Below are positions 37,080-51,980 of a stretch of 64,000 bases of DNA, in pieces. The notes under the pieces are model-generated. The model had not been told where the DNA came from. It saw nothing but the letters and a program-made list of their open reading frames with translations, and ran no database searches. The stretch covers positions 5,891-69,890 of the forward strand of contig CAVUST010000002.1 of assembly GCA_963744245.1 (NCBI GenBank). The letters are read 5' to 3'. The DNA comes from an uncultured Solirubrobacterales bacterium. GTDB lineage: Bacteria > Actinomycetota > Thermoleophilia > Solirubrobacterales > Solirubrobacteraceae. The first letter of the stretch is position 1; the number at the start of each line of letters is the position of its first letter. Made by a program: the position numbers and the translations under genes.

Positions 37080-39791
37080 CTACTTGACGACGAGGTTCAC
37101 CAACTTGCCCGGCACGACTATCTCCTTGACGATCTCCTTGCCGTCCACGTGCGCGCGCACGTTCGGGGCGGCGTGGCAGAGCGCCTTGAGCTCGTCCGGG
37201 CTCGCGTCCGAGGCGGCCTGCACGCGGTCGCGCAGCCGGCCGTTGACCTGACACACGAGCTCGTAAGTGTCGCGCTCGAGCATCTCCTCCTCCGCCCGCG
37301 GCCACGGCTGCTCCCACACGCGCTCACCGGTCAGCATCTCGTAGACCTCCGCGCTGACATGCGGCGCGAATCCGAACAGCAGCGAAGCGGCCGTCGCGAG
37401 CGCGAAGCGCTGGCTGTCAACGCTCACCTCCTCGCGCAGGCGCGAGCACTCGTTCAACAGCTCCATCACCGCGGCGATCGCCGTGTTGAACGCGAACCTG
37501 CGCAGATCTCCACTGACCTTGTCGATCGCCCAGTGGGACTTACGCAGGAGGGTGAGGTCGGGGTCATCGCCGCCCGTTGTGCCGCCCGAATGCGCCCGTG
37601 AGGCCGGTGTACCGGTCGGCGCATCCTCAGGAGCGGGCGGGTCCGCATGCTCTTGAAAAGCTGATGTTGTTCGGGGTGGCGCATGCGCCACCCCGCCGGG
37701 CGGCACATGTGCCGCCCGGGGCAGGGTCGCATGCGACCCTGCCGGAGGAGCCGCATGCGGCTCCTCCCTCCCCCTCTCCGAGACCTCGGCCGCCAACCGC
37801 CACAGCCGGCTCAGGAACCGGTGCACGCCCTCCATGCCCTCGTCCGACCAGTCGGCGTCCTGGTCGGGCGGGCCGATGAACAGGATGTAGCAGCGCGCCG
37901 TGTCCGCGCCGTAGCGCTCGACGATCGACGCGGGCGAGACGACGTTGCCGCGAGACTTGCTCATCTTCGCGCCGTCCTTCGTGATCATCCCCTGCGTGAA
38001 CAGCGCCCGGAAGGGCTCCTGGAAGTCGAGGTGGCCGAGGTCCGCGAGCGCCTTGCAGAAGAAGCGCGCGTACATCAGGTGCAGGATCGCGTGCTCGACC
38101 CCGCCGATGTACTGATCGACGGGCATCCACTCTCCCAGCACCGCCTCCTCCCAGGCGGCCTTCTCGTTGGCGGCGTCGCAGTAGCGCAGGAAGTACCAGG
38201 AGGAGTCCACGAACGTGTCCATCGTGTCCGTCTCCCGGCGGGCCGGGCCCTTGCACTCGGGGCAGCTCGTCTGCACCCACTCCTCGGCGGCCGCCAGCGG
38301 CGAGCGTCCCCGCGGCGCGTAGTCCTCGACGTCCGGCAGCTTCACCGGGAGATCCTGCTCGGGCACCGGCACCGCCCCGCAGCCCTCGCAGTAGACAATC
38401 GGGATCGGCGTGCCCCAGTAGCGCTGGCGGGAGATCAGCCAGTCGCGCAGCCGGTAGTTGACCGAGGCGTGCCCCTTGCCCTCGCGGTCCAGCCAGCGCA
38501 CGATCTCGCCCAGCGCCTTGCGGTTGCGTATGCCGTCGAAGTCGGGGTGCGAGTCGACCAGCAGGCCATCGCCCGTGTAGGGCAGGCTCTGAGCGGAGAA
38601 CTCCCAAATGTGGGGGTCGGGCACGAAGTCGCGAGGCGCCTCGCCGTCGGCGCCCATGATCACGCGCCTGATCGGCAGCTCGAAGGCGCGCGCGAACGCG
38701 TAGTCGCGCTCGTCGTGCCCCGGCACCGCCATGATCGCGCCCGTGCCGTACTCCATCAGCACATAGTCGGCGACATACATCGGGATCTGCTCGCCGTTCA
38801 CCGGATTGGTGACCGTCCGTCCCAGCGCCACGCCCGTCTTGGGCTTCTCAGCGTTCCCGCGCTCCTCGCCGGACTCGGTGATCGCATGGCTGACGTACTC
38901 GCGCACTTCCTGCTCGCGCTCGGTGTGAGCGACGAGGCGCAGCACGTCCGGGTGCTCGGGAGCCATCACGAAGAACGTCGCGCCGAACAGCGTGTCCGGG
39001 CGGGTGGTGAACACGGGGTAGTCGATGCCGAGCTCCTCGCAGCGGAACGTCACCTCCGCCCCCTCGCTGCGCCCGATCCAATTTCGCTGCATGGTCTTCA
39101 CGTGCTCGGGCCACTCGATCTGATCGAGATCGTTCAGCAGGCGCTCGGCATAGTCGGTGATGCGCAGGAACCACTGCTCCAGCTGCCTCACTTCGACCGT
39201 CGCGCCGCAGCGCTCGCACGTCCCGTCGGGTGAGACCTGCTCGTTGGCGAGCACCGTCTGGTCTTTCGGACACCACTTCACCGCCGCCTCCTTGCGGTAT
39301 GCGAGCCCGGCGTCGAACAGCTGCAGGAAGATCCACTGCGTCCAGCGGTAGTAGCTCGGTTCGTGCGTGGCCAGCTCGCGCGACCAGTCGATCGAGATGC
39401 CCCACTCGCGAAACTGGCGCTGGAAGGAGGCGATCGAGGCGTCCGTGGACGCACGGGGGTGGACGCCCGTCTTGATCGCATGGTTCTCCGCCGGCAGCCC
39501 GAACGAGTCGTAGCCCATCGGGTGCAGCACGCGCCGGCCGAGGCGGCGGTGGTAGTGGGCGATCGCGTCTCCCACCGAATAGACCTTCAGGTGGCCGATG
39601 TGCGGCTCGCCGCTCGGGTAGGGCAGCATCTCCAGCACGTAGGAATTGGTCTGCTCGCCGACATCGCTGCTCGTGCCCCGGCCCTGCTGGGGCTTCGCGC
39701 CCTCGTTGGCGACCTCCCAGGTGCGCTCGTCGGCCCACACCGCCTGCCAGCGGGGCTCGATCTGCTGCGGGTCGTAGCGGTTCTCTGTCAT
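37080..39791 (-). CDS. leuS: Leucine--tRNA ligase with an in-frame palindromic insert
   Basis: [13 protein letters not shown] (HIGH), [11 protein letters not shown] and KMSKS. Confidence 0.98.
37672..37767. repeat. Four abutting perfect 24-bp palindromes centred on RCATGY
   Basis: Units at 37672-37695, 37696-37719, 37720-37743 and 37744-37767, each checked base by base. Confidence 0.97.
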
Positions 39792-51317: not shown

Positions 51318-51980
51318 CTACTCCTCGATCAGCCGCCGGTGCACCGCCCAGCGGGTCAGCTCGTGGCGGCTGGAGAGCTGGAGCTTGCGCAGAACCGCGG
51401 AGACGTGCGCCTCGACGGTCTTCGCCGAGATGCCGAGCTGGGCGGCGATCTCCTTGTACATGTATCCACGCGCGATGTGCTGGAGCACCTCGCGCTCGCG
51501 CGGCGTGAGCAGATCGAGCTCCGGGTCGACCTGCGCGACCGGGATCTCACCGGCGAAGGCGTCGAGCACGAAGCCCGCCAGGCGCGGCGAGAAGACGGCG
51601 TCGCCGTCGCGCACGCGGCACACGGCGTCGGTGAGCTCGGGCCCGGAGATCGTCTTAGTCACGTAGCCGCGCGCGCCCGCGCGGATCAGCGCGATCACGT
51701 CCTCGGCGGCGTCGCTGACCGACAGCGCGAGAAAGCGAACGGCCGGGCGACTCTCGCCGAGCCGCCGGATCACCTCCGCGCCACCGCCCCCCGGCATGTG
51801 GACGTCCAGCAGCACGACGTCGGGCTCGAGCTCCTCGATCGCACGCACCGCGTCTCGCACCTCGCCGCTCTCGGCCACGACCTCGACCCGCGGTCCGAGG
51901 CTCGTGCGCACCCCGGCGCGGAACAGGTCGTGATCGTCGACGATCACGACCCGTGCGACCGATCCCGATGCGTCGCTCAC
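51318..51980 (-). CDS. NarL/LuxR-family response regulator
   Basis: VVIVDDHDLFR, LLDVHMP and LTPREREVL..KTVEAHVSAVLRKL. Confidence 0.92.
   Translation of the reverse strand: MSDASGSVARVVIVDDHDLFRAGVRTSLGPRVEVVAESGEVRDAVRAIEELEPDVVLLDVHMPGGGGAEVIRRLGESRPAVRFLALSVSDAAEDVIALIRAGARGYVTKTISGPELTDAVCRVRDGDAVFSPRLAGFVLDAFAGEIPVAQVDPELDLLTPREREVLQHIARGYMYKEIAAQLGISAKTVEAHVSAVLRKLQLSSRHELTRWAVHRRLIEE

Follow-up and report, generated by a model that had tools for sequence, protein, structure and literature searches.

Repetitive extragenic palindromes (REP), bacterial interspersed mosaic elements (BIME) and REPINs are short GC-rich hairpin palindromes that lie dispersed in tens to hundreds of copies, mostly outside genes and often just after them, in head-to-tail clusters that show insertion-deletion polymorphism among relatives. 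REPs have one sequence per genome, imperfect stems, a GTAG/CGTC tag and a Y1 transposase called RAYT. Rickettsia palindromic elements (RPE) can sit in frame in essential genes, aminoacyl-tRNA synthetase-type housekeeping genes included, where they are translated as an extra surface segment that leaves the protein unbroken; each is a solitary element of 100-150 bp whose palindrome has loops and mismatches, and the copies resemble one another in sequence. Miniature inverted-repeat transposable elements (MITE) and the pneumococcal BOX elements are small, non-autonomous and modular; their end modules enclose internal ones in varying number. Perfect palindromes may also arise by mutation: in the Ripley model, template switching at a quasi-palindrome turns an imperfect inverted repeat into a perfect one in a single event. 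Such mutation is known in E. coli (PMC7202029), and template switching makes and repairs perfect stems (PMC8794818). In hairworm mitochondria, functional coding genes contain perfect inverted repeats, and imperfect copies are not in excess; the authors of that study inferred that the arms are actively converted by each other and proposed template switching as the mechanism (PMC6649704). Here we analyse a window of 64,000 nucleotides (G000:C2:5891-69890) from an uncultured Solirubrobacterales bacterium, whose leucyl-tRNA synthetase (LeuRS) gene, leuS, contains an in-frame array of four 24-bp palindromes, and we compare this array with these systems.

The source genome, labelled G000, is a soil metagenome-assembled genome (MAG) of 3.09 Mb and 68% GC in two contigs. 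Other G numbers denote genomes of its relatives, which are likewise uncultured Solirubrobacterales/Solirubrobacteraceae soil MAGs, and L numbers denote loci (LeuRS loci, and in the case of L155 an element).

The leuS array and the dispersed repeats of the genome

A sequence-only reading of the window had described four abutting, differing, perfect palindromes in leuS. The sequence was re-read and contains exactly these, with no gap, loop or mismatch (Table 1); the same arm identities were obtained (9/12 for units 1 and 2, 8/12 for units 3 and 4), the frame is kept, and the minus-strand translation consists of 8-residue repeats in which His comes from the central CAT. The host gene is intact in its domain content, the editing, catalytic and anticodon-binding Pfam domains being complete, and its product matches LeuRS in the PDB at E 5e-252. 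It is single-copy, with one match across G000, and sits on C2, the smaller contig (504 kb) of the two-contig assembly, which may be a second replicon or an unjoined part of the chromosome. Against T. thermophilus LeuRS (1h3n), query residues 673-743 remain unaligned opposite a 16-residue linker (chain 701-716). The extra segment thus amounts to about 55 aa relative to T. thermophilus, and to about 61 aa relative to the unit-free orthologue of G007; the linker is 84 aa long here versus 20-30 aa in unit-free orthologues. An insert of about 67 aa after the KMSKS region had been proposed: its start indeed lies about 65 residues past KMSKS, but the size was somewhat high. As single-stranded DNA, the 96-bp array has a predicted fold of four hairpins, each with a 10-bp stem and a CATG loop (-54 kcal/mol, z = -10). 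The insert's tail has diverged strongly from G023, the closest relative, whereas the four units have not, and in contigs of related strains positions 37561-37635 are swapped for 79-80 other bases.

Table 1. Features of the leuS insert and the in-frame arrays of G000 (window positions unless a contig is given).
Feature	Position	Strand	Description
leuS (leucyl-tRNA synthetase)	37080..39791	-	903 aa, intact; from open reading frame list, translation, Pfam domains and PDB match
Whole in-frame insert, about aa 673-743	37563..37775	-	in the length-variable linker from the catalytic core to the anticodon-binding domain
Degenerate, fast-changing insert tail	37563..37639		decayed half units (GCATCC, GAATGC) and an 11-nt copy of the unit-2 arm; from repeat search
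End module	37640..37671		half unit ending in GCATGC, then AAAGCTGATGTTGTT
Palindrome unit 1	37672..37695		arm CGGGGTGGCGCA; perfect 12+12; centre GCATGC; predicted DNA hairpin
Palindrome unit 2	37696..37719		arm CCGGGCGGCACA; perfect; centre ACATGT
Palindrome unit 3	37720..37743		arm GGCAGGGTCGCA; perfect; centre GCATGC
Palindrome unit 4	37744..37767		arm GGAGGAGCCGCA; perfect; centre GCATGC
In-frame array, leuS	37672-37767	gene on -	4 units
In-frame array, lysA-like (diaminopimelate decarboxylase-type) gene	G000:C1:10622-10765		6 units
In-frame array, C-terminal part of ABC-F ATPase gene	G000:C1:1704021-1704116		4 units

The leuS insert is almost certainly an in-frame copy, a ~210 bp insertion with a 96-bp core, of a dispersed hairpin-repeat family. 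G000 contains 42 arrays, each of 3-8 units and together of 224, and 219 of these units (98%) are perfect over the inner 11 pairs. Genome-wide, 185 CATG-centred 24-mers are perfect and 40 have 11/12 pairs, the lone mismatch falling almost always on the outermost pair. Chance does not produce such numbers: palindromes with arms of at least 12 occur 205 times in the genome versus 0-2 times in first-order Markov simulations, and arm length is sharply peaked at exactly 12 (175 cases, versus 34 at 10 and 19 at 13). The presence of palindromes and arrays elsewhere in the genome and in relatives bears directly on the sequence-only reading, which had set their absence as its refuting outcome; the idea of a device specific to leuS falls, since the leuS array is one of 42, of which 39 are intergenic and only three stand in frame within genes. 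Independent data also support the segment itself, as one Logan contig from a separate rhizosphere run (X5) matches 37711-37767 exactly; a second contig from that run matches 37635-37700 with one difference, and L040 and L041, from short-read MAGs of other projects, have nearly the same four units in leuS.

Centres within arrays are spaced by 24 bp in 112 cases, by 23 in 28 and by 25 in 36. Among 181 perfect units, arm positions 9-12 are strictly Y, R, C and A, making the centre always YRCA/TGYR (the stroke marks the middle of the unit), whereas positions 1-8 vary freely, unlike this 8-bp core. Nine terminal units have a mutated centre (e.g. CAAG, CGTG, CACG) and still a perfect stem of 11-12 bp. 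Neighbours in an array always differ from each other and hardly ever belong to one class. Over all G000 arrays the same unit class recurs at lag 1 in 12%, at lag 2 in 2% and at lag 3 in 42%, which suggests that unit classes follow a three-unit superperiod of about 72 bp. The lengths of intergenic arrays fall in every residue class modulo 3. Many arrays begin within a few bases of a stop codon, and 3/36 lie in divergent gaps versus about 17% of all gaps, as judged with a crude gene caller of our own that covered 69% of the genome; the bias towards 3' ends is only weak, and we do not rely on it. Genome-wide CATG sites number 9190, against about 9100 expected from base composition by our own arithmetic, and these G000 site counts give no sign of restriction-driven avoidance or enrichment of CATG beyond the arrays. 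An all-versus-all BLAST search of the flanks returned only short shared modules of at most 46 nt; therefore, the arrays are not part of a larger conserved element. A permissive Rfam search of the array region gave sub-threshold chance matches only; the top one, RsmW, scored 30.7 bits where 52 are required.

In the general traits named at the outset, namely shape, copy number, dispersal, extragenic position and clustering, these arrays resemble REP, BIME and REPIN. Unlike in REPs, however, their 221 units carry 159 different arms, 123 of which are singletons, their stems are 98% perfect and only YRCA/TGYR is common to them. Moreover, RAYT (Y1/HUH, PF01797) found no match in the 94% complete G000, while control genomes were matched, and TnpB (PF07282) had no match in G000 either; with neither family present, an IS200/IS605-derived (PATE-like) element was rejected. 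The leuS copy is RPE-like in lying in frame in an essential gene and in being translated as an extra segment, but it is an array of loop-free perfect 24-bp units with differing arms, and unlike RPEs the family has only 3/42 copies coding in G000; this architecture sets it apart from RPE-1 to RPE-10, and there was no match in Rfam or other libraries, though RPE sequences themselves were not compared directly. Like MITEs and BOX elements, the arrays are small, non-autonomous and modular. Unlike them, they have an end module that is lineage-restricted and absent from many arrays, and internal modules that are perfect palindromes; as there is no target-site duplication and no related autonomous transposon, and the end motif occurs only beside arrays, MITE membership was rejected as well. 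The hairworm repeats share with the leuS copy their perfection within functional coding genes; they differ in being up to 284 bp long, single and placed in conserved protein parts, with no arrays and no mobile dispersed family. Thus the element works like REP/BIME clusters and, in leuS, like an RPE, but belongs to none of the REP, RPE, MITE and IS200/IS605-derived classes. The sequence-only reading was fair in separating it from REP and RPE by membership, and these two remain its closest known elements functionally.

Mirrored change of the two arms

The way in which the arms change was determined by comparing 71 aligned orthologous unit pairs of G000 and G023, for which the G023 data consisted of the array loci and 20 targeted regions. 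Between the two genomes the array flanks are 84-94% identical, and 82 of 412 fourfold-degenerate (4-fold) sites of leuS differ (19.9%). About 18 of the G023 arrays covered lie at orthologous G000 sites. For about 7 the corresponding G000 site is empty; most of these arrays immediately follow a stop codon or stand between coupled genes, and alignments of filled with empty sites revealed no target-site duplication. From species to species the units of orthologous arrays stay in the same order, and the arrays differ through mirrored single substitutions and through units gained or lost, so that unit counts vary among them. In the 71 unit pairs, 718 arm-pair positions are identical, 113 differ in a mirrored fashion and 21 differ unmirrored, 17 of these 21 at the outermost position; at internal arm positions, mirrored differences outnumber unmirrored ones by 107 to 4. 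Arm positions 3-6 show a mirrored divergence of 27%; for positions 7-10 the figure is 8%, and for the CA positions it is 0. The leuS units behave alike in a second comparison, G000 versus G008, where seven arm positions differ and 7/7 are mirrored, and one change in unit 2 (the third in reading direction) is seen in three stages, C/C in G000, T/C in G023 and T/T in L040. Taken together, the two arms evolve jointly within their sites, about as fast as 4-fold sites do. The view of the sequence-only reading that ordinary duplication followed by drift cannot explain the symmetry is supported.

Mismatched intermediates are rare. Only 8 of 2464 internal stem pairs are mismatched (3 G-T, 1 A-C, 1 A-A, 2 G-G and 1 C-T). 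From the 4 mismatches against 107 completed changes we estimate, by our own arithmetic, that a mismatched state is very short-lived, lasting about 2% of the divergence time, and that mismatches would be resolved at a few hundred times the per-site substitution rate.

We consider it probable that a template-switch type of conversion keeps the arms perfect. Symmetry would be held at the DNA level by copy-correction inside each palindrome: during replication, template switching at a quasi-palindrome would resynthesise one arm with the other as template, and a mutation in one arm would soon be either reverted or mirrored, letting the arms drift in sequence while staying perfect. Slippage or recombination between the shared cores could account for the gain and loss of units and could also generate hybrid units, which the same correction could then make perfect. 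The argument proceeds by elimination. Mirrored change near the 4-fold rate is far too fast for paired independent point mutations under selection. G-T pairs are so few (3/2464), and other types of mismatch about as frequent, that the process appears to act on DNA rather than RNA. That units are copied from one another is unlikely, since the genome contains most arms only once. With selection, the RNA level and inter-unit copying set aside, conversion of one arm by the other remains. The Ripley model predicts mirrored changes with few lasting mismatches, as found here. However, what is known of template switching concerns mutational hotspots and rare events in the evolution of RNA genes; as the standing means by which a whole family of several hundred dispersed palindromes is maintained, it is not known to have been described. 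Among the mechanisms floated by the sequence-only reading, one that corrects palindromes, by template switching, fits these data, whereas of an integrase adding units there is no sign.

Several points weigh against this explanation or blur its numbers. We infer template switching from rates and from the near absence of mismatches, not from direct observation. The 4-fold sites, at ~98% GC at third codon positions (GC3), are not strictly neutral, which makes the comparison with a neutral rate approximate, and divergence is truncated because units were accepted as orthologous only with an arm identity of at least 8/12. The leuS units themselves show 0 mirrored and 1 unmirrored change between G000 and G023, against about 6 expected from intergenic units; since they change less than intergenic units, some selection acts on the leuS copy, which is therefore under some extra constraint. 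Moreover, the YRCA/TGYR core is strict, with 0 changes at the CA positions in the 71 unit pairs; this lies beyond arm-to-arm copying and implies an added constraint, be it structure, a binding protein or a mobility function. Finally, the spread of whole arrays to new sites, for which neither a transposase partner nor a target-site duplication was seen, is likewise beyond this model.

The strongest competitor, which we nevertheless regard as unlikely, is that structure itself is selected: the units would be functional RNA or DNA hairpins, such as terminators or protectors of mRNA 3' ends like REP/BIME, kept paired by ordinary compensatory mutations. Consistent with this, most arrays lie between genes, a stop codon often being only a few bases away from their start, the 8-bp core is clearly constrained, the leuS units are better conserved than their flanks, and the array folds into the four strong hairpins described above. 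However, mirrored substitutions accumulate at about the 4-fold rate (27% vs 19.9%). In Kimura's theory of compensatory mutation, two independent mutations fix at a rate near 2u²/s, far below u and slower by orders of magnitude, and two selected independent mutations therefore cannot give the mirrored change observed. In addition, G-U-compatible pairs are almost absent, unlike in selected RNA helices; stems are perfect to the outermost pairs even in coding copies (91/106 leuS units across relatives); and the location bias is weak, with 3/36 arrays in divergent gaps by crude gene calls.

A bolder version of the conversion model, on which we would place only a modest bet, sees in the arrays a new kind of selfish DNA that is kept up without a transposase. 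Slippage between cores would create hybrids, template switching would perfect them into new palindromes, so that arrays would generate, vary and keep up their units by themselves, and a candidate protein reading the core or the hairpin tip could move arrays, even into essential genes.

A dedicated enzyme that writes or moves the 24-bp units is an option to which we give little credence. The unit would be the footprint of an event performed by a transposase that forms or opens hairpins, by an HUH enzyme, by a CA/TG recombinase or by an integrase adding units. Transposon termini may be of the form 5'-TG..CA-3', and the invariant CA/TG centre resembles two such ends abutted; unit length is fixed, seven G023 arrays are present as a whole at sites empty in G000, and some elements have an inverted end module. 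Yet Y1/HUH and TnpB genes were not found in G000, and the search for a co-occurring HUH gene that the sequence-only reading had called for thus came back negative. Furthermore, filled sites show no target-site duplication, the end module is confined to the neighbourhood of arrays, with no larger autonomous element seen, and is missing from more distant array-bearing genomes, and phage and plasmid sequences yielded no match. The preserved order of orthologous units, with their single mirrored changes and gains or losses, shows no polarised growth and no sign of the unit-adding integrase once suggested.

It is more doubtful still that each array serves a dimeric protein, nucleoid-associated or regulatory, as a row of binding sites at which it recognises the palindromic core. 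The core is invariant in kind (YRCATGYR) and recurs every 24 bp, a little over two helical turns. Such recognition leaves the exact complementarity of the eight variable outer arm positions unaccounted for, the very point on which the dimer-binding proposal of the sequence-only reading fails, and the nine terminal units keep perfect stems despite their mutated centres. Protein binding might come on top and account for the conserved core; the symmetry is beyond its reach. Lastly, although the closest relatives are long-read MAGs by their records and palindromes can confuse assemblers, there is practically no chance of an artefact of assembly or polishing of a long-read MAG, which is already refuted by the same units in independent short-read contigs, by short-read MAGs of other projects that carry nearly the same units and by the dozens of array-bearing genomes, and which would not be expected to leave the frame of an essential gene intact throughout.

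These arrays offer a large natural data set in which both arms of a DNA hairpin demonstrably change together at about the background rate; a genome contributes hundreds of units, dozens of genomes carry them, and arrays can be compared as orthologues. The idea that template switching makes and maintains perfect stems (PMC8794818) can thereby be tested directly in bacteria.

Coding copies and the LeuRS linker in relatives

Coding arrays were defined by frames with coding-type GC3 on both sides. In all three (Table 1) the units are spaced by exactly 24 nt, the array length is a multiple of 3 and the frame is CCG CAT GCG, read as Pro-His-Ala, and the lysA-like and ABC-F genes, like leuS, stay open across their arrays. 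The reading frame is kept because the period of the element is fixed at 24 nt. In the 181 perfect units, the His frame has stops in 5 units and the other two frames in 12 and 16; the His frame encodes mostly Ala, Pro, His, Arg and Gly, whereas the other frames yield 14% Cys or 31% Arg. The frame bias of the coding copies looks like filtering by selection rather than targeting. Units 3 and 4 of leuS (48 bp) are identical to two adjacent units of the lysA-like gene array, which suggests that both coding arrays may have a recent common source or have undergone gene conversion with each other. The ABC-F array is followed by a second hairpin module (described below), whose place in the G023 orthologue, a row of five units, is taken by an end module.

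We next turn to the leuS site in relatives, where the linker was measured after the FLSRLWR motif. Among about 100 related LeuRS genes, 29 carry 1-6 units in the same length-variable linker, which in most others is 20-30 aa long. These amount to 106 units, 91 of them perfect, and consecutive units are always spaced by 24 except in L055, where spacings of 25 and then 23 compensate each other; there, one unit is read in another frame before the frame is restored. The His frame is used in 27/29 of the unit-bearing genes. The two others are L111, in which a clearly homologous three-unit array is translated in the Ala-Cys frame, and L042, with one unit in the Met frame. Unit 3 is identical in G023, G008 and L040. 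In L009, the leuS of G003, one perfect unit is accompanied by a hybrid whose left arm is of one unit type and whose right arm is of another (7/12 pairs); judging from its sequence, this hybrid appears to be the product of a deletion between two GCATGC cores. In L017, L054 and L075, the LeuRS genes of G008 and its relatives, an Asn/Ser/Thr-rich repeat, SNTSSNTSTNT, encoded by a tandem repeat of the TCCAATACC type and separate from the palindromes, lies just upstream of the units. Other families of the order have no units at the leuS site; therefore, the insertion is derived.

The leuS copy may have survived because it landed in a surface linker of LeuRS that is naturally variable in length. Exact 24-nt spacing together with a His frame almost devoid of stops would then give an Ala/Pro/His/Gly-rich, linker-like peptide, which is most likely tolerated rather than useful. 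These findings extend the theme of translated selfish palindromes in essential genes, of the Rickettsia type, to a soil actinobacterial clade. They also matter for annotation: the arrays explain the His/Pro/Ala-rich 8-residue repeats found in housekeeping proteins of Solirubrobacterales MAGs, which should be taken neither for assembly errors nor for functional domains.

Distribution, end modules and neighbouring repeats

The distribution of the family was surveyed with an array pattern of three centres, the reversed pattern serving as control. The pattern has 134 matches in G000, versus 0-1 for the reversed control. Within the genus, 18/24 further genomes contain it, with as many as 158 matches, and 0/16 genomes belonging to five other families of the order do. 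When 250 genomes of the bacterial family were drawn, 7/51 genera showed it, among them g1 (6/8 genomes) and g14 (6/9), with few matches in g46, g61 and others. The family is thus confined to a few genera of uncultured Solirubrobacterales. Phage and plasmid collections contained no match to the array, and no earlier description of such repeats was found in the literature searched (in-frame tandem perfect palindromes, Solirubrobacterales palindromes, actinobacterial RPE/REP).

An end module, consisting of a half unit followed by AAAGCTGATGTTGT, is present in G000 and G023 and rarely in G003. In G000 it stands beside about 10 arrays, always oriented inward, and is found only beside arrays. Some elements have it in inverted orientation at both ends (L155; G000 C1:568573-568800), most at one end or at neither. 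Among five relatives searched, only G023 and G003 contain it; it is missing from the array-bearing genomes G020, G007 and G022. Since the module is bound to arrays and yet missing from these three, it is a lineage-specific accessory and not a defining terminal repeat. The 8-mer AAGCTGAT was rejected as a marker of the element, as the majority of its 164 copies encode Lys-Leu-Ile within genes; the longer end module is specific.

The second hairpin module, CCGATCGAAG...CTTCGATCGG, is often located beside or within arrays, for instance at G000 C1:10586-10617, C1:1704131-1704150 and C1:2241735-2241753, and at others. Its sequence GATCGAAGATCG occurs 17 times in G000, and in genes it is translated as ...SIGQHAP.... 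Finally, the window contains at 51926-51951 (G000:C2:57816-57841) a perfect 26-bp palindrome with a GTCGAC centre, which falls outside the CATG-centred family.

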